In this document: one piece after another, positions 424-34,881 of the stretch
How the letters are laid out: every line of letters begins with the position of its first letter
Position numbering within the stretch: position 1 is the stretch's first letter
Origin: Escherichia phage T1
Sequence record: NC_005833.1
Reading direction: 5' to 3' (one strand)
DNA length: 48,836 nucleotides
Translations under genes and position numbers: made by a program
Notes under the pieces: model-generated
What the model saw: the letters and a program-made list of their open reading frames with translations, nothing else
The model's database searches: none
What the model was told of the DNA's origin: nothing

Positions 424-538
424 CACACTTAAAATCGCCCCGCAGACCTTGACACATGCGGGTCGTCGTGTAACACTACGATTAGAGACACGGTGTTACA
501 TGTTAATCATGGTGTATATTGAAACTAAGGAGAAAGCT

Positions 539-2903: not shown

Positions 2904-3389
2904 ATGTTAAAATTAAAAGATATTCAGTTCCCTGTAGTATTTAACACTATTAGCTGCGGTAAAATAACCTGCCACAGCAAAGATCGCGCAACAGATTCAT
3001 CATTCAATGAGTGCCACCCGTCTATTGTTGGTAATCTTATTGAGCTTCATAACAATCACAATCCTGATAACATCCCATCTCTTCCATATTATGTTGAGGG
3101 AGTCGGGCCTGGTTGGAAGGTTGGTCGCTCCATCTTCCATGCAGCAAAGCCAGAAATCAAGCCAGCGCTACAATGCACTCAGATCGAGAACATGCCATTG
3201 AGCGCGACACTAAAAGGTGTCCAACTTGATAGCGAATCCTGGATCGAGATTACCGCCACGCCTAAAACTATTGAGGTACATGATGATGTGGTGATTCTCC
3301 TGTTGCATTACGGCAGCTTTAAGCACAAGACGGTATCAGGTGAAATCAGCATTAAGCGCGGAACTCTTGTCCGCTACGAGGTGAAATAA
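2904..3389 (+). CDS. hypothetical protein (161 aa)
   Basis: Track ORF after box-hairpin element 2829-2879. Confidence 0.5.
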   Translation: MLKLKDIQFPVVFNTISCGKITCHSKDRATDSSFNECHPSIVGNLIELHNNHNPDNIPSLPYYVEGVGPGWKVGRSIFHAAKPEIKPALQCTQIENMPLSATLKGVQLDSESWIEITATPKTIEVHDDVVILLLHYGSFKHKTVSGEISIKRGTLVRYEVK

Positions 3390-3538
3390 TGACTGCATGG
3401 GTCTTGATTATCTTGATGAGCAAAGGTCCGGATCACGTATACATGGAAAGTCAACAATCATGCAACAAGGCACGGGAAGTTATCGCAGAGAACAAGCCGT
3501 TCGGATATGAAGTAAAAACTATGTGCGTTAAACGATAG
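3389..3538 (+). CDS. small hypothetical protein (49 aa)
   Basis: Manual translation; ATG overlaps upstream TAA (TAATG); stop TAG inside box at 3535. Confidence 0.3.
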   Translation: MTAWVLIILMSKGPDHVYMESQQSCNKAREVIAENKPFGYEVKTMCVKR

Positions 3539-25042: not shown

Positions 25043-28000
25043 ATGATTCAAAAAGTGATAAGCGGATCTAAAGGTGGGTCACAGAAGCCTCATAACCCAG
25101 TTGAGATGGAGGACAATCTAATCTCAATCAACAAAATCAAGATCCTGTTAGCTGTATCTGATGGTGAAATTGACGAAACATTCAGCCTGAAGCAGTTGAT
25201 GTTTAACTCAGTCCCGGTGCAAAACGAGGATGGCTCATTTAACTTCGAGGGAGTAAAGGCAGAGTTCAGACCGGGGACGCAGACTCAGGAATATATCAAG
25301 GGAATGGAAGATAGCTCTAGTGAGGTAACTGTAAATCGTGAGGTTACTACCGATAACCCATACACAATCTCAGTAACCAACAAAACGCTGTCGGCAATCC
25401 GTATCAAAATGTTCATGCCTCGCGGCGTACGAATTGAAAGTAACGGTGATAAAAATGGCGTAAGAGTTGAGTATGAGGTGCAACAAGCTGTTGATGGCGG
25501 CTCGTTTGAGACGGTGCTCACCGATGTAATCGAAGGCAAAACAATGTCAGGTTACGATCGAAGCAGACGTGTAAACCTACCTAACTTCAACAATCAGGTG
25601 ATATTCAGAGTGGTTCGGAAAACTCCAGACTCTAACGACTCGAACGTTGTTGACGCGATTCAGGTAAAGAGCTATGCCGAGGTGATTGATGCCAAATTCC
25701 GTTATCCGCTGACTGGTCTTCTTTTTGTCGAGTTTGATTCGAAGATGTTCCCAAACCAGTTACCTACGATCTCAATTCGTAAGCGCTGGAAGATTGTAAA
25801 CGTTCCGTCAAACTATGATCCAGAATCACGAACTTATAACGGAAATTGGGATGGAACTTTTAAGAAGGCATGGACGAATAATCCGGCCTGGGTGCTTTAT
25901 GACCTGATGATTAATCAGCGTTATGGCTTGGATCAGAAAGAGCTTGGTATCGCTGTAGATAAATGGGCGCTCTACGAGGCTGCGCAATATTGCGATCAGA
26001 TGGTTCCTGATGGGAAGGGCGGGACGGAACCTCGATACCTTTGCGACGTGATAATCCAGTCTCAGACTGACGCTTACAAGGTTATCCGAGATATTTGCTC
26101 AATCTTTCGTGGTATGAGCTTTTGGAATGGTGAGAGCATTTCGGTAATCATCGACAGGCCGCGTGAACCTGCGTACATCTTCACTAACGACAACGTTGTT
26201 AATGGTGACTTCTCCTACACGTTCGCAAGCGAAAAGAGCATGTACACGACGTGTAATGTGATGTTTGATGATGAACAAAACATGTATCAGCAGGACGTTG
26301 AGCCAGTATTCGATCGTGAGGCTACTCTACGGTTTGGGAACAACGTTACGAGCATTACAGCGATCGGTTGCACACGTCGAAGCGAGGCCAACCGACGCGG
26401 GAGATGGATTCTGAAAACTAACCTCCGCAGCACTACGGTAAACTTCGCTACCGGGCTTGAGGGCATGATCCCGACAATCGGAGATGTTGTGGCAATAGCT
26501 GATAACTTCTGGTCAAGTAACTTGACAATGAACCTGTCAGGGCGTTTGCTCGAAGTGTCTGGAAGTCAGATTTTCTTGCCGTTCCGGGTGGATGCACGCG
26601 CTGGTGACTTTATTATCGTAAATAAGCCAGATGGCAAGCCTGTGAAGCGCACAATCTCAAGTGTTAGTGCGGATGGTAAGACTATAGAGGTTAACATTGG
26701 CTTTGGCTTTCCTGTGAAGCCTAACACGGTATTCGCTATCGACCGCACCGACATTGCGTTACAGCAGTACGTCGTGACAAAAATCGATAAGGGCGATGAT
26801 GATGAGGAATTTACCTACAAAATAACGGCGGTGGAGTACGATCCTAACAAGTATGATGAGATTGATTACGGAGTTAACATCGACGACCGACCGACGAGCA
26901 TCGTTGAACCAGATCAGATCCCTAGACCGAAAAATGTGCAAGTATCCTCAGAGTCGAGAATCGTCCAGGGGATGAGCGTAGAAACGATGATTGTTAGCTG
27001 GGATAAAGTTCCGTACGCTGTTTTCTATGACGTCCAGTGGCGAAAGGATAACGGCAACTGGCAAAATGTACCGCAGACAGCAAACAAAGAGGTATACGTT
27101 GAAGGTATTTACGCTGGCAACTATCAGGTTCGCGTTCGCTCAGTCGCTGGTTCGGGCACGACTTCAGGCTGGTCAAATATCGTCGCGGCAACGTTGACGG
27201 GTAAACAGGGTGAACCGGGCCGACCGATTAACCTCACAGCTACGGATGATGTTGTTTTTGGTATCCGTACAAAATGGGGGTTCTCTGATGGTTCTGGAGA
27301 TACAGCCTATACAGAGTTGCAACAGTCACCGGATGGAACAGTGGATAACGCAAGTTTGCTTTCTTTGATTCCGTATCCGCAGCATGAGTATTATCACTCA
27401 CCAATGCCTGGAGGGAATATTGTTTGGTATCGGGTAAGGACGGTTGACAGGATCGGTAACGTGTCTCAGTGGACTGATTTTGTCAGAGGTATGGCATCAA
27501 CAAACGTTGACGATATCATTGGGGAGATTTCTGTTGATATCGAAAACTCACCTGGTTACGAGTGGCTTGTTGATAACGCAACAGACAACGCGGCGCAGAA
27601 CTCAGCTAACGCAGAGGCAGCAATAGAAAACGCGCTCGCCAATGACAAAGACGCGATCTACATGAAGAAGGAGAACGGAAAACGAAAAGCTGAGTACACG
27701 AAATCACTGAAACTTATTGCTGATGAGACGCAGGCACGAGTGACGGCGATCGAGCAATTGAAGGCAAGTTTTGGCGATCAGATTAGCGCTAGCAACAGCG
27801 AGCTGCGTGAGGTTATCGCAACCGAGACTGAAGCACTATCGCGTGAGATTGACCAGCTTAAGGCTCAGATTGGTGACGATATTCAGGCAAGTCTGACTGA
27901 TATTCGGGAGGTTATCGCAACCGAGACTGAAGCACTATCGCGTGAGATTGACCAGCTTAAGGCTCAGATTGGTGACGATATTCAGGCAAGTCTGACTGAT

Positions 28001-28561
28001 ATTCGGGAGGCTATCGCGAACGAGACTGAGGCTAGAACGCAAGCTGACTTAACACTTAGCGCGCGGCTTGGAAATAACGAGGCGGCACTTGCTCAAAAAC
28101 TAGACTCGTGGAGTAACGCGGATTCTACTGGTGCAATGTACGGTGTCAAGTTGGGTCTGAAATACAACGGCCAGGAATACAGTGCAGGCATGGCTATGTC
28201 TCTAGTTGGTTCCGGAGCTGCGGTTAAGGCGCAGATTTTGTTTGAGGCGTCACGATTTGCCATCATGACTGGAATGAATGGTCAGACTCAGTACCCCTTC
28301 GTTGTTGAGAATGGTCAGGTTATTTTAAGTAGCGCGATTATCAAGAACGGATTCATCACCAACGCAATGATTGGAAACTTCATCCAGTCGAATAACTATG
28401 TATTTAACCAGTCCGGATGGAGGCTTGACAAGGGTGGAACATTCGAAAATTACGGAAGTGACGGTGAGGGTGCAATGAAGCAAACTAATACCACAATATC
28501 TGTTAGGGATGCGAGTGGTCGCCTGAGGGTTCAGATTGGCAGGTTGACTGGCTCATGGTAA
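25043..28561 (+). CDS. tail tip / host specificity protein (lambda J-like central fibre)
   Basis: 1172-aa ORF following M/L/K/I-like genes; contains a 2 x 99 bp perfect in-frame tandem repeat. Confidence 0.8.
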   Translation: MIQKVISGSKGGSQKPHNPVEMEDNLISINKIKILLAVSDGEIDETFSLKQLMFNSVPVQNEDGSFNFEGVKAEFRPGTQTQEYIKGMEDSSSEVTVNREVTTDNPYTISVTNKTLSAIRIKMFMPRGVRIESNGDKNGVRVEYEVQQAVDGGSFETVLTDVIEGKTMSGYDRSRRVNLPNFNNQVIFRVVRKTPDSNDSNVVDAIQVKSYAEVIDAKFRYPLTGLLFVEFDSKMFPNQLPTISIRKRWKIVNVPSNYDPESRTYNGNWDGTFKKAWTNNPAWVLYDLMINQRYGLDQKELGIAVDKWALYEAAQYCDQMVPDGKGGTEPRYLCDVIIQSQTDAYKVIRDICSIFRGMSFWNGESISVIIDRPREPAYIFTNDNVVNGDFSYTFASEKSMYTTCNVMFDDEQNMYQQDVEPVFDREATLRFGNNVTSITAIGCTRRSEANRRGRWILKTNLRSTTVNFATGLEGMIPTIGDVVAIADNFWSSNLTMNLSGRLLEVSGSQIFLPFRVDARAGDFIIVNKPDGKPVKRTISSVSADGKTIEVNIGFGFPVKPNTVFAIDRTDIALQQYVVTKIDKGDDDEEFTYKITAVEYDPNKYDEIDYGVNIDDRPTSIVEPDQIPRPKNVQVSSESRIVQGMSVETMIVSWDKVPYAVFYDVQWRKDNGNWQNVPQTANKEVYVEGIYAGNYQVRVRSVAGSGTTSGWSNIVAATLTGKQGEPGRPINLTATDDVVFGIRTKWGFSDGSGDTAYTELQQSPDGTVDNASLLSLIPYPQHEYYHSPMPGGNIVWYRVRTVDRIGNVSQWTDFVRGMASTNVDDIIGEISVDIENSPGYEWLVDNATDNAAQNSANAEAAIENALANDKDAIYMKKENGKRKAEYTKSLKLIADETQARVTAIEQLKASFGDQISASNSELREVIATETEALSREIDQLKAQIGDDIQASLTDIREVIATETEALSREIDQLKAQIGDDIQASLTDIREAIANETEARTQADLTLSARLGNNEAALAQKLDSWSNADSTGAMYGVKLGLKYNGQEYSAGMAMSLVGSGAAVKAQILFEASRFAIMTGMNGQTQYPFVVENGQVILSSAIIKNGFITNAMIGNFIQSNNYVFNQSGWRLDKGGTFENYGSDGEGAMKQTNTTISVRDASGRLRVQIGRLTGSW
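27811..28008 (+). repeat. perfect in-frame tandem duplication, 2 x 99 bp, inside J-like gene
   Basis: 27811-27909 and 27910-28008 read identically; encodes a 33-aa unit twice, followed by a diverged third unit. Confidence 0.8.
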
Positions 28562-28566
28562 TATCA

Positions 28567-28595
28567 AGGGCATCGAGAGATGCCCTTTTCTTTTG
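28567..28595 (+). terminator. rho-independent terminator after J-like gene
   Basis: AGGGCATC gaga GATGCCCT followed by TTTCTTTT. Confidence 0.6.
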
Positions 28596-28606
28596 GAGGA
28601 TTTATT

Positions 28607-28912
28607 ATGGCGTACGGTATATCAACTTGGGACGCAAATGGCGTTTATAATAACTATGGAATTAAGCCTATTACGGTTGTTGGTTGGAACTTTTTGTCAG
28701 CAGGCCAGAATTCAGCATCGTTCAGCTATCAAGTGCCTCCTGGTATGCATGTGAACTACGTTATAAGCCTTGACGATGGCGCCATTAGTGGGCCTGGCAG
28801 GAAAATTATTGCTAGCGGTAATACGATAACAGTAACGCCAACAAACTCACCTGGGCCAAACGTGTACCCATCATCAAACTGTTACTTAATAGCATATCTG
28901 GAGAATGATTAA
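28607..28912 (+). CDS. hypothetical protein, paralog of next gene
   Basis: Track ORF 28580..28912; start refined to ATG 28607 after GGAGGA; MAYGISTWDANG resembles MSYGAFIDVNGN of next ORF. Confidence 0.4.
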   Translation: MAYGISTWDANGVYNNYGIKPITVVGWNFLSAGQNSASFSYQVPPGMHVNYVISLDDGAISGPGRKIIASGNTITVTPTNSPGPNVYPSSNCYLIAYLEND

Positions 28913-29601
28913 TGTCATACGGTGCTTTTATAGATGTAAACGGAAACCCATTCATAACCCCGTTATCCACGCCATTCGCTTTATATGCGAGAGGGGAAAT
29001 TCAATCAGTAAATGTTAGTGGTTCACAGGTTGCGGAGAGATACGTTCGGATACCTACAGGTGTTCCGGTTATAGCTTTTTGCAAAACAACAAACACGCAG
29101 CAGGGGACCGCGCTTTCAGCCTTTACTTTCAGAAGCGGACCCAATGTTGGAACTGTTTATATAAGGGGGACAAATCCAGCAAACCAATCATACACGCTAA
29201 CATACTACATATTTGCCATATTTGAGCAGTCACTACCGAGATGGGGTATGGCAATATGGGATGCGTCAGGAAAGCTAGTGCTGACAAATGAGACAAAAGT
29301 CCTTAGTGATTTGGTTACAATCGGCACTCCTGGATACGCTGGCGGTGGATTAAACATAGACACAACACTCAGCGGAAGCTACGCGGTTGTTCCAACTATA
29401 CTTGGCAACTATCAAGTTGTTATTGGAAGGTTGCCAACTGGGCAACCAATAATAGGAAACTCAACAGCAGGCAGTTCATGCAGGTACAACGGGAGCACAA
29501 CGAGAATAAATGCAGCAGCAACCACTGCGGCAGGTCAGATAATGAACACAACGAATAATGGAAATATTATAACAGCAATCAAAACGGCAGCATACGACTA
29601 A
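28912..29601 (+). CDS. hypothetical protein, possible tail accessory
   Basis: 229-aa ORF, ATGA overlap; ATA/AGA-rich codon usage; followed by bidirectional terminator. Confidence 0.4.
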   Translation: MSYGAFIDVNGNPFITPLSTPFALYARGEIQSVNVSGSQVAERYVRIPTGVPVIAFCKTTNTQQGTALSAFTFRSGPNVGTVYIRGTNPANQSYTLTYYIFAIFEQSLPRWGMAIWDASGKLVLTNETKVLSDLVTIGTPGYAGGGLNIDTTLSGSYAVVPTILGNYQVVIGRLPTGQPIIGNSTAGSSCRYNGSTTRINAAATTAAGQIMNTTNNGNIITAIKTAAYD

Positions 29602-29624
29602 GCCCCTTGCGGGGCTTTTATTTT
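29601..29624. terminator. bidirectional terminator between convergent genes
   Basis: AGCCCC ttgc GGGGCT flanked by T-run (plus) and A-run (minus). Confidence 0.6.
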
Positions 29625-29850
29625 ATATCGAGCAATCGTGAGATTTGAAGTTTTTCTCTGATACATAGTTGAAGGAGAATGGGTATCCAGCACGCAATAC
29701 CATCTCCTTTCCGCGCATCTTAGATCCAAAAACGTAAACCGAGTACTCCGCGCCGCCTGATTCATAAATTGCCGTGCAAGTGCGCTCAGGCATCGATGAG
29801 CAACCAGTCAGGATGAATGCCGCAGCGATAATGGTGATTAACTTTTTCAT
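29623..29850 (-). CDS. small outer-membrane-type lipoprotein (Cor/Llp-like superinfection exclusion candidate)
   Basis: 75 aa; signal peptide with lipobox LTGC (MKKLITIIAAAFILTGCSS); lone reverse-strand gene after tail module. Confidence 0.5.
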   Translation of the reverse strand: MKKLITIIAAAFILTGCSSMPERTCTAIYESGGAEYSVYVFGSKMRGKEMVLRAGYPFSFNYVSEKNFKSHDCSI

Positions 29851-30000
29851 TTGTATGTCCTCGTCGTTAGTGTGATTGCATTGTATGTCGCATTTACTTT
29901 TATTGCAATAGAGCGATTACAATTTTTTTCGTGTAACAGGCGTATATTTTTGTAACCGGAATGGGTGTTACAAAATCGCCTCCATCCGACCGCAGGGAGA

Positions 30001-30070
30001 TATGATAAAAACTCTATATAATATATATAGATAGATAATATTTAATTTTAGCTTTATATATATAATTATT
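30001..30070. repeat. second alternating AT-rich tract with flanking GTGTAACA-type repeats
   Basis: ctctatataatatatatagatagataatatttaattttagctttatatatataattattg; CGTGTAACAGG at 29929 and 30099. Confidence 0.6.
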
Positions 30071-30318
30071 GTTGTGTAACAGTTGTATATCGTGTAACAG
30101 GTGATTTGATTGATTCGTCAAATTTCTATCATGTATGTTCAAAATTTAATCAATCTGGATTCTATTTGTAGGTATCTCTGTATTTCTAATAAAAAGCGGT
30201 TACAAGTGTTACGCAATAGACAGCGCATAAAAATCTACTTAAGCCATTGATTCTGTTGATGCTGGTTGTAACTTGAGCAATATAGACACGCAATTACACA
30301 CTGATTACATGTATTCGA

Positions 30319-30346
30319 TTGACTAAACGCTGTTAATGGCTATAAT
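30319..30346 (+). promoter_or_regulatory. sigma70-like promoter for recombination operon
   Basis: TTGACT 30319-30324, 16-nt spacer, TATAAT 30341-30346, about 30 nt upstream of exonuclease start. Confidence 0.6.
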
Positions 30347-30377: not shown

Positions 30378-31442
30378 ATGTTCCAGGTATTCACATCAAG
30401 CCAGCTTTCTAACGACGAGTATCATAGAAACGAAGGTTGGGCGTCAGAGTATGTAAGCGGATCGAGTCTTGCAGAAATTTATCAGACCTGCCCTGCTAAC
30501 TGGAGATTCAAGAAGAACGAGACAACGAAAGCTCTGGAGTTCGGTACTCAGTCGCACACCAACTTTGAGAGTCGAGATCTGTTTACTGCAACGTATGCTA
30601 GATGCCCTGCTCCGTCAGAGTTTAAGGATCTGATTACTTCGCAGGCGGCGCTGGCAGCAAAATTAAAATCATTCGGCCTGAAAGGTACATCCGGTAAGCA
30701 GTACCCGGACCTCATCAAAATGATGGTTGATTGTGGTGAAGAACTCAACGTTCAATACCTGATTGAACTGATCGCAGAAGCTGAGGCCCGTGCTGAAGGA
30801 AAACAACTTGTTGACGCGGACAAATACGACGCTTGCATGAAGATGAGAGCCATCCTTGAGCAGAATCCCGATCATGAAGCGTGCATCAACAGTGAAACGG
30901 CGCAGCGTGAGATTTCAATCTTCGGTGAGATATCCGGCGTAAAAGTTAAGGTTCGACTTGACCATCTGGACTACAAAGAGAATGTTCCAGGTCGTGTCCT
31001 GACTGGTTATGATGAGAATGGCGATCCGGTATTTGAAGACGTAATTTTCCCGGAAGCACTGATTATCACAGATTTCAAAACTACGATGAGCGCCAACCCG
31101 TTAGAGTTCCCGAGACTGGCATACAATCACGGCTATTACCTGAAGATGGCATTGCAGCATGACCTGCTACGACGCGCAATCCAGGCTGGAGCTTTTGAAG
31201 GTAACTTCCCGGAAGACATTCCGATCGTGGTTCGATTGCTTGCGCAGGAGAAAAAAGAGCCTTATATCGCACTGGCTTACCGTATGACTATGGAGCAAAT
31301 CAGGATAGGTCGTAACCAGTACATTAGCGTAGTCCACACTTACAAGGCTTGCTCTGAAATGGATGTTTGGCCTGGGTACGCTGGCGACGCAAGCGAGATC
31401 GAACTTGAAACGCCATCATGGGTGCGTTACCAAAATAAGTAA
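30378..31442 (+). CDS. PD-(D/E)XK-type exonuclease (recombination exonuclease)
   Basis: 354-aa ORF; IITDFKTT motif consistent with a D..(D/E)xK nuclease core; sigma70-like promoter 30319-30346; first gene of exo-annealase-SSB set. Confidence 0.55.
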   Translation: MFQVFTSSQLSNDEYHRNEGWASEYVSGSSLAEIYQTCPANWRFKKNETTKALEFGTQSHTNFESRDLFTATYARCPAPSEFKDLITSQAALAAKLKSFGLKGTSGKQYPDLIKMMVDCGEELNVQYLIELIAEAEARAEGKQLVDADKYDACMKMRAILEQNPDHEACINSETAQREISIFGEISGVKVKVRLDHLDYKENVPGRVLTGYDENGDPVFEDVIFPEALIITDFKTTMSANPLEFPRLAYNHGYYLKMALQHDLLRRAIQAGAFEGNFPEDIPIVVRLLAQEKKEPYIALAYRMTMEQIRIGRNQYISVVHTYKACSEMDVWPGYAGDASEIELETPSWVRYQNK

Positions 31443-32694: not shown

Positions 32695-34881
32695 CTACGT
32701 ATTTTTTAAGCTTTCAACAAACTCTCCAGATACCATTCTTTCATGATTTCTTTTGCACTCTTCAACCTTCTTGTTGTAAATCGAGTCATTAGGCATCTCA
32801 ACTCGAACGCTAACAAAAACATCACTCGGAATGTCAATAGGATCTCCGTCGCTATACCCATCCTTATGATTTCTTGCGAATGAAGGCGCGTTATCATGAG
32901 TTCTATGATAAGTCTTGATAACCAAAGACCCATCAGGGTTAACATCATAATCTACCCACAATATAGGCTGTCCGTTAATGTCTTTTGGTATCTCTATACC
33001 ACCATTAACACCACCCCACGCTAGATCAGAATTTAGTGATAAACACCCCCTTATCAAATACTCGCCAGTAGAAATCCTCTCAACTGTACAACCTTCGCTC
33101 TCGTCGTTTGTTCTATGGCTCCCGTTGCCAAAAATATCAACGATGGGCGAGGCTCTTTTTATAAATCCGTTAGAGTCAACGGTTGTATTGCCTGTATTCC
33201 ATATAACCTGGGTAGATTGCCATTGCCCCGCTCCTGTCTGTTTTCTGAGCCTCACATCCTTATAGTGTGGAGAGGTCATTGATGCGTCTTCAATAACAAA
33301 ACCGAAAGCACTACCATCTCCTTGACCGTTTCTATGACGAACAGATATAGCTGTGACCCATCCAACAGAATTAACATTGTAACTTGCAAGGCTGCTAGGC
33401 TGAGATGATAAGGCGTTAACATAATCTACCCAGCTTGATTTCTCGTTAGATGCCGGACTTGATACAACGTTACCGGAAGAACTTGCCTGAAACGGTATCC
33501 ACGGAGAAAACTTTGCATTATTGCCGTTTTTCATCCTTATGTAAAAAGTGCCGCGACCCGCTCTTGCGTATTCGTTTTGAGAATTTCCAGATTCTGGGGC
33601 AGTACCCAAATAAGTAAAAGGCGTAAATCTCTGAATGCAAGCGCTTGCACCGTTAGCTCCATTAGGAAGAACCTCAAGCATACCTGCCGTAGCCTCAGGA
33701 TAGCCCCTACTAGCGGTAGCTAAAGCACTTGATGATTGCATATATATTCCAGGGCCATCACCTTCACCAGTTATTGAATCAAGATGTTTTTCCCCTAAGT
33801 TAGTTCTATCAAGTTTGTAAACCTTTAGGCTTGTCCTTGCCTGCTCCTCGGTAGTTCCACCAGTGCCACCAAAATTAACCCCTAGAGCCTTGTTTTCACT
33901 TCCATCATGAGTCATGGCGCCCCAGTCGCCGCTATCCTTGACGATCAGCTTAAATCCGGTCCTATCGTCATTTGAATAGATTTCCGTTAAATCTCCGCGA
34001 GGTTGATTTAATCTATTTACTGCTAGATTTTTCTTTGATTGCTCCTTGTCAGCAAGGCCAGAAAGATTTCCGTCCTTAGTTAAAAGATTGTCAGCATTAA
34101 CGCTATTTGCTGCGTCCTGAGCTTCCTGAGCACTTACCGCTGCCGCGTCTTTAGCGCTAACCGCCGCATCGCGTGCTGCCTGGGCATCGTTTTTTGCTGA
34201 GGTTGCAGTTTGCGCCGCAGTCTGAGCATCATTAACATAGCCAGATAGATCGCCTTTAGCGTCATTGATTGCCTGAATGGCCGCCGCCTCTTCAGAGTTA
34301 ATATGCGTAACGGCTGAATTTTCTTTTTGCTGCACATTAGTGATAGCCTTGTCTTTTGCTGCATTAATGCTACCAATAGCGCTATCTGAGATTTGCTGCG
34401 TCTGGTTTTTTATTGAGATAGACTCGTCACGCGCTGAATTAGCTGAGTCGCGAGCAAGCTCCGCTTGATTCTGCGCAGCTTCTGCGGCTGATTTGTTTGA
34501 CTTAATTTCTTGAACGATATTGTTCAGGTTGTCCATATCAAGATCGGCAATAATATCCAATGCCGATGCGATCTCAGTCTCTTTGCTCTGGTAGTACCGA
34601 AGCGTCTCAGCGACGTTTTGCGCAAGACCGTTAACGGTCAATGAATCGTTAAGCAAGATCACATACTTACCGTCAGCGGCAGTCTGACCATCCGTAGAGA
34701 TAGCCTTTAGCTCTGTGTCGCTCACAATGTCGCTGATTACCGCCAGTTTAATTGGTTGCTCCAGGAATACGATAGTTGCACCGACTCGAATCAGAGCAAG
34801 CTGATCTTTCCATTTTGTATCGGTTCCGTGAACCGTACCGTCTGCATCCATTGATGCAGTACCGCGTCTATATAAAGCCAT
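32695..34881 (-). CDS. tail fibre protein
   Basis: 728-aa reverse-strand ORF; long Ala/Gln/Asp/Ser-rich helical N-terminal region, Gly/Ser/Asn-rich beta-like C-terminal region. Confidence 0.6.
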   Translation of the reverse strand: MALYRRGTASMDADGTVHGTDTKWKDQLALIRVGATIVFLEQPIKLAVISDIVSDTELKAISTDGQTAADGKYVILLNDSLTVNGLAQNVAETLRYYQSKETEIASALDIIADLDMDNLNNIVQEIKSNKSAAEAAQNQAELARDSANSARDESISIKNQTQQISDSAIGSINAAKDKAITNVQQKENSAVTHINSEEAAAIQAINDAKGDLSGYVNDAQTAAQTATSAKNDAQAARDAAVSAKDAAAVSAQEAQDAANSVNADNLLTKDGNLSGLADKEQSKKNLAVNRLNQPRGDLTEIYSNDDRTGFKLIVKDSGDWGAMTHDGSENKALGVNFGGTGGTTEEQARTSLKVYKLDRTNLGEKHLDSITGEGDGPGIYMQSSSALATASRGYPEATAGMLEVLPNGANGASACIQRFTPFTYLGTAPESGNSQNEYARAGRGTFYIRMKNGNNAKFSPWIPFQASSSGNVVSSPASNEKSSWVDYVNALSSQPSSLASYNVNSVGWVTAISVRHRNGQGDGSAFGFVIEDASMTSPHYKDVRLRKQTGAGQWQSTQVIWNTGNTTVDSNGFIKRASPIVDIFGNGSHRTNDESEGCTVERISTGEYLIRGCLSLNSDLAWGGVNGGIEIPKDINGQPILWVDYDVNPDGSLVIKTYHRTHDNAPSFARNHKDGYSDGDPIDIPSDVFVSVRVEMPNDSIYNKKVEECKRNHERMVSGEFVESLKNT

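Follow-up and report, generated by a model that had tools for sequence, protein, structure and literature searches.

The minus-strand gene at 29623-29850 of the phage T1 genome encodes a member of the Cor family of superinfection exclusion lipoproteins. Reading all the evidence together, its product would be exported and would very likely block the receptor FhuA from the periplasmic side, in the manner of the T5 lipoprotein Llp. The Cor identity of the gene was already known from genome annotation and from the Cor/Llp literature.

The T1 cor gene and its predicted lipoprotein product

All positions refer to the window, the whole stretch of DNA that was analyzed (48,836 nucleotides, record NC_005833.1). 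The following features were assigned to cor and to its product:

29623..29850, minus strand: cor coding sequence with ATG start (75 aa plus stop codon, from the ORF listing), coding for the Cor lipoprotein precursor
29803..29850, minus strand: predicted signal peptide, residues 1-16, MKKLITIIAAAFILTG (from the translation, its hydrophobicity and a Pfam LPAM_1 match over residues 1-18)
29800..29811, minus strand: lipobox L14-T15-G16-C17, codons 14-17 (from the translation)
29626..29802, minus strand: mature Cor (59 aa, about 6.6 kDa), with Cys9 and Cys57 (C25 and C73 of the precursor), the RAGYPF motif and a small beta-barrel-like predicted fold
29858..29862, minus strand: Shine-Dalgarno sequence GAGGA, 7 nt before the cor ATG (from reading of the sequence; invariant in five Tunavirus phages)
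29880..29908, minus strand: candidate cor promoter, -35 TTGCAA, 17-nt spacer, -10 TACAAT (sigma-70 consensus scan, 9/12 matches; a consensus match only)

Translation of the ORF gave the 75-aa precursor MKKLITIIAAAFILTGCSSMPERTCTAIYESGGAEYSVYVFGSKMRGKEMVLRAGYPFSFNYVSEKNFKSHDCSI. Its signal peptide is composed of the n-region MKK and a 10-residue h-region (LITIIAAAFI) with a mean Kyte-Doolittle value of 2.9, and the Pfam lipid attachment site model LPAM_1 scored 20.1 bits, which is at its threshold of 20. Signal peptidase II would cleave off the signal peptide, as expected from the established lipoprotein pathway, so that mature Cor is predicted to begin with the lipidated Cys17. A serine occupies position +2 after this cysteine. 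According to the +2 sorting rule of lipoproteins, serine at this position leads to Lol sorting to the outer membrane, and this is the destination that it predicts for T1 Cor.

A preliminary description had proposed a 75-aa minus-strand ORF with a LTGC lipobox, standing alone on its strand beside the tail module and transcribed against the flow from an AT-rich region. The ORF listing and LPAM_1 returned exactly this gene and lipobox, and its surroundings agreed with the rest of the proposal. Of the first 49 CDS annotated in the T1 record MN153797 (500-32,634), cor alone is on the minus strand. The J-like central fibre gene, followed by two small genes, immediately precedes it, and it reads out of a region (29900-30300) of 23-33% GC, compared with about 41-52% in the flanks, with the candidate minus-strand promoter at 29908..29880.

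Weak PHROG matches to Rz-like spanin families were also obtained (E 0.02-0.5), all of them within the signal peptide/lipobox residues 1-24, as could be expected if T1 Cor were a lysis lipoprotein, i.e. the Rz1-like outer membrane component of a spanin. That it has this role is extremely improbable: the holin-lysin-spanin cassette of T1 is located at about 42.8-44.0 kb, 13 kb from cor; no ORF for an inner membrane spanin partner overlaps or adjoins cor at 29.6-29.9 kb; and mature Cor has a compact predicted beta fold, only 2 prolines in 59 residues, and strong matches to Cor proteins. Position, missing partner and composition ruled out this assignment.

T1 Cor belongs to the Cor family

Over the 2 kb around cor, the window matched Tunavirus T1 isolate 22 (MN153797) with 99.6% identity and many T1-like phages of Escherichia and Shigella with 93-96%. 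In MN153797 the identical ORF is labelled "super-infection exclusion protein, cor", and cor is annotated in dozens of T1-like genomes, the RefSeq label in these phages being "Cor superinfection exclusion protein". Two family models agreed with these labels: the NCBIfam equivalog NF047972 ("phage exclusion lipoprotein Cor") matched residues 1-73 of T1 Cor with 55.8 bits, above its curated cut-off of 31, and PHROG 1119 ("Cor superinfection exclusion protein") matched it with an E value of 3.3e-30.

The curated NCBIfam profile places T1 Cor in one family with the Cor proteins of phi80, N15, ES18, HK022 and mEp167. By tblastn, T1 Cor was 36% identical to N15 Cor (gene 24, E 3e-5), 33% to phi80 Cor (E 5e-4) and 34% to ES18 Cor, and mEp lambdoid phages were matched too. 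Over the mature part, the Cor proteins of N15, ES18 and phi80 are 33-36% identical to that of T1, and they have in common with it the lipobox, the three cysteines and RAGYPF; alignment of the T1, N15 and phi80 proteins showed that these cysteines are the lipid-bearing one and two further ones. The mature T1-type protein differs from N15 and phi80 Cor in lacking a 3-residue insertion before the second cysteine. All the testable defining features of the family were found in the T1 protein, which is therefore a Cor family member.

For Cor as a family and for its cassette, other authors refer to Wietzorrek et al. (2006). Cor lipoproteins have been presented as superinfection exclusion proteins of T1 and phi80 that are likely Llp-like in function (PMC9586334), and Cor of T1 and related phages has also been named as such elsewhere (PMC13164509).

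Searches of T1 Cor with the PADLOC defence models gave no match, the PADLOC library being one without Cor. The top phmmer matches among PDB sequences were designed armadillo-repeat proteins (E 1.6e-8). These were discarded as an artefact, in which nine weak repeats are summed and no single stretch is significant.

The cor ORF is a genuine gene under selection

Homologues of T1 Cor were found encoded in 192 phage records by tblastn against the phage collection. A 36-sequence alignment was built from a word-indexed protein search that returned 36 clusters, down to 39% identity; the distant proteins of N15 and phi80 were beyond this search and were reached by tblastn in the phage collection. All of the 36 homologues have C17, C25 and C73; in a set of 20 close homologues, 26 alignment columns do not vary, and neither G16 nor C17 varies in the close homologues. 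Comparison of five Tunavirus phages showed about two synonymous codon differences in cor for each non-synonymous one in all informative pairs (for example 15 to 7), a pattern that indicates purifying selection on the ORF. Since homologues are present in 192 phage records, synonymous changes are in excess and the cysteines are invariant, the cor ORF is a genuine gene and not a chance ORF.

This evidence also bears on whether cor, though conserved, could be a remnant whose function has decayed or is irrelevant. The first description of Cor was as a lysogenic conversion protein of temperate phages; T1 is a virulent phage, and the literature searched yielded no direct phenotype for T1 Cor. We regard a remnant as hardly credible, because cor is under purifying selection, with synonymous changes exceeding non-synonymous ones among Tunavirus phages and core residues invariant in the 36 homologues. 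Besides, the ORF is intact and preceded by a Shine-Dalgarno sequence and a promoter-like site, and T5, which is also a virulent phage, uses the analogous Llp in lytic growth.

The predicted fold of T1 Cor is that of T5 Llp

The AF2 model of the 59-aa mature protein, computed from the 36-sequence alignment, had a pLDDT of 88.1 and contained four beta strands. When this model was compared with the PDB using Foldseek, the best match was T5 Llp as crystallized with FhuA (8A60 chain B), with TM scores of 0.66/0.63 over 59 columns, and the other matches were generic Tudor/SH3-like barrels with poor rmsd. In BFVD, the model was most similar to a Cor-type protein and to small lipoproteins from T5-like phages. 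As modelled, T1 Cor has the Llp fold, and predicted structures of T1 Cor and Llp have been put in one family by others (bioRxiv 10.64898/2026.03.26.714494).

At the sequence level the two proteins are far apart. Llp (in PDB 8A60 as chain B with FhuA, and free in 7QJF) is only about 20% identical to T1 Cor, and the RAGYPF segment, a hallmark of Cor, is not conserved in it. The T1-type Cor profile matched Llp in the PDB with an E value of 3.4e-5, and hhalign of the Cor profile against Llp gave 96% probability; both scores are inflated, because the signal peptide lies in both alignments. The Pfam family PF24052 (Phage_lipoprotein) matched residues 3-51 of T1 Cor with 17.7 bits (E 0.0035), below its gathering threshold of 27 bits, so that T1 Cor is not filed in this family by sequence.

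The three cysteines of T1 Cor align with those of N15 and phi80 Cor and of Llp, C9 and C57 of the mature protein corresponding to C11 and C58 of Llp. In Llp, a C11-C58 disulfide ties the N- and C-termini (bioRxiv 10.64898/2026.03.26.714494). Since the three invariant cysteines align with those of Llp, mature T1 Cor is probably clamped by an analogous Cys9-Cys57 disulfide.

The genes of the two lipoproteins can also be compared. T5 llp has its own promoter, as T1 cor has a promoter-like site, and adjoins oad, the gene of the receptor-binding protein (RBP). However, llp is divergent from oad, whereas T1 cor is convergent with its cassette, and the gp22/gp23-like proteins encoded beside cor in T1 are not related to pb5, the RBP of T5.

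cor lies in a receptor-recognition cassette downstream of the J-like gene

The tail genes next to cor, and the intervening hairpin, are the following:

25043-28561, plus strand: J-like central fibre gene, upstream of the cassette
28607..28912, plus strand: N15 gp22-like gene, 101 aa from the annotated start (start as in MN153797); 57% identity to N15 gp22, E 1e-38
28912..29601, plus strand: N15 gp23-like gene, 229 aa; 53% identity to N15 gp23, E 3e-72
29600-29617, plus strand: GC-rich hairpin AAGCCCC-TTGC-GGGGCTT, with a T-run after it up to 29627 (terminator scan)

The gp22-like ORF extends back to 28580; its alignment with N15 gp22 begins at Met10 of the ORF, and the gene probably starts at this residue (28607) and not at 28580.

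The arrangement J, gp22-like, gp23-like, cor is common to T1 and to the FhuA-dependent phages N15 and phi80, only the orientation of cor being different. In phi80, genes described as "similar to N15 gp22/gp23" occupy the same positions as the T1 genes, and the Cor proteins of phi80, N15 and T1 share the same receptor context, FhuA. The hypervariable locus downstream of gpJ has been reported to combine a receptor-binding function with the cognate superinfection exclusion protein and to track receptor specificity, whether for FhuA, BtuB, LptD or YncD (PMC8594841; bioRxiv 2026). Among the phages of the BASEL collection, those that carry the full cor cassette are members of Drexlerviridae and Dhillonvirus that use FhuA (PMC13164509). 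Judged by similarity and position, the gp22/gp23-like genes of T1 belong to this FhuA-linked receptor-recognition locus downstream of J. Their products carry the RefSeq label "membrane associated protein", which looks doubtful because recent work reads this locus as encoding the RBP.

The same genomic slot is occupied in phage Rtp, a T1-related Drexlerviridae phage, by the superinfection exclusion lipoprotein Rtp45 (PDB 9RPS with LptDE), which is small, as Cor is, and, as is proposed for Cor, faces the periplasm and blocks the outer membrane receptor of its own phage. Rtp45, however, targets LptD and not FhuA, and acts by steric clash and not by TBDT allostery; compared with the Cor profile, only its signal peptide was similar (E about 1).

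Inversion of cor and its likely independent expression

The cor genes of N15 and phi80 point in the same direction as the tail genes. In T1 cor is inverted; it is therefore convergent with the gp23-like gene and is read from the divergent AT-rich region. Both hexamers of the candidate cor promoter are invariant in five Tunavirus phages; this adds little, given that the entire intergenic region of these phages is about 96% identical. The inversion of cor with respect to the tail operon, with a promoter-like site and a ribosome-binding site of its own, would fit expression that does not depend on the late tail genes.

The hairpin fills the 21 bp that separate cor from the convergent gp23-like gene. 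Its stem is invariant in related phages and its loop is variable (TTGC, TTTC or TTCC). Read on the minus strand, this hairpin comes after the stop codon of cor and has no T-run. From these features we assign the element at 29600-29627 as the predicted terminator of the plus-strand tail operon.

The N15 and phi80 loci have a gap of about 110 bp between gp23 and cor (3345-3455 in each extracted locus). This gap is consistent with a private cor promoter in those phages as well, in a moron-like arrangement, and the T1 organization would be consistent with independent expression of cor having been reached by inversion instead of through a gap of the N15/phi80 type.

The AT-rich region between cor and the exonuclease gene contains further elements. 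On its plus strand, a near-consensus sigma-70 promoter (TTGACT-16-TATAAT, 30319-30346, 11/12 matches), invariant in five Tunavirus phages, is situated 32 nt upstream of the start of the exonuclease (RecE-like) gene at 30378. The sequence GTGTAACAG occurs as exact copies at 29931, 30074 and 30092, and nowhere else in the 48.8-kb window. Related copies are present at 29948-29975, 30197-30213 and 30266-30272, and several TTGTAAC/GTTACAA variants lie in the same intergenic region, including the inverted pair TTTTGTAAC/GTTACAAAA. Most of these repeats are kept in four other Tunavirus phages, and they could be regulator sites or iterons. Outside the cluster at 29.9-30.1 kb, the only other exact copies of the 7-mer TGTAACA form an inverted pair near the left genome end, at 469-475 (plus strand) and 494-500 (minus strand). 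An AT-only near-palindrome at 30018-30066, with 21-nt arms (30022-30042 and 30044-30064) that are 81% complementary, coincides with the GC minimum of the region (23%) and is invariant in five Tunavirus phages except for a 2-bp deletion in one.

One difference from MN153797 was observed beyond this region. The window contains a single 728-aa lateral tail-fibre ORF on the minus strand (32695-34881), where positions 32696-34867 of MN153797 hold two CDS (32696-34312 and 34412-34867). This suggests a frameshift or a sequence difference between the isolates.

Likely mode of action of T1 Cor

The preliminary description had further matched the gene, by type and position, to receptor-blocking superinfection exclusion lipoproteins, and had named it the prime candidate for blocking an outer membrane receptor, on the premise that the phage uses one. 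The match is borne out by NF047972 and PHROG 1119, by similarity to N15, ES18 and phi80 Cor, by annotation and by the Llp-like predicted fold. The premise holds as well, the outer membrane protein FhuA being given as the T1 receptor in PMC10373560.

An exclusion phenotype has been shown for homologues, namely the Cor proteins of phi80, N15 and mEp167, and for T5 Llp. Expression of lambdoid Cor reportedly excludes FhuA-dependent phages and impairs FhuA function (bioRxiv 10.64898/2026.03.26.714494; Uc-Mass 2004). Binding of Llp folds the extracellular loops of FhuA inward and thereby abolishes pb5 binding (PMC9586334), and an AlphaFold3 dock by others put a close T1-like Cor on the periplasmic side of FhuA with an ipTM of 0.84 (PMC13164509). 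No direct experiment on the Cor of T1 itself was found in the literature searched: in PMC10373560 and PMC9836094, Cor appears in the reference lists only, with no data on it, and a paper stating that T1 Cor function "was reported previously" cites work on lambdoid Cor.

We consider it rather unlikely that T1 Cor dispenses with loop allostery of the Llp kind, and either occludes the periplasmic TonB-box/plug region of FhuA or acts through other outer membrane proteins. T1 and phi80 need TonB for irreversible adsorption, and masking of the TonB box/plug would block this TonB-dependent step in both phages. Moreover, since RAGYPF is a Cor hallmark that is not conserved in Llp, the FhuA contact surface of Cor may differ from that of Llp, and the molecular mechanism of Cor has been described as not yet elucidated (bioRxiv 10.64898/2026.03.26.714494). 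The evidence from fold and docking, however, favours the Llp route. Combined with a route other than that of Llp, inversion onto a private promoter would make cor an early "lytic conversion" gene, independent of the tail operon, a joint reading to which we give a low probability.

The Llp-like action of T1 Cor is thus proposed from family membership and fold. Cor would be made as a 75-aa precursor and exported, and the 59-aa mature lipoprotein would fold into a small beta structure, probably clamped by its Cys9-Cys57 disulfide. It would most likely bind the periplasmic face of FhuA, as T5 Llp does, and lock the receptor in a form unusable by the receptor-binding proteins of phages. We know of no Cor-FhuA structure.

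Receptor-blocking lipoproteins of the Cor/Llp type are well described, up to the crystal structure of FhuA bound by Llp, and the value of the T1 result is confirmatory. As T1 is virulent, expression of its Cor would amount to lytic, and not lysogenic, conversion: locking of FhuA would shield the infected cell from superinfecting FhuA phages, and it would prevent the loss of T1 progeny to the FhuA of cell debris.
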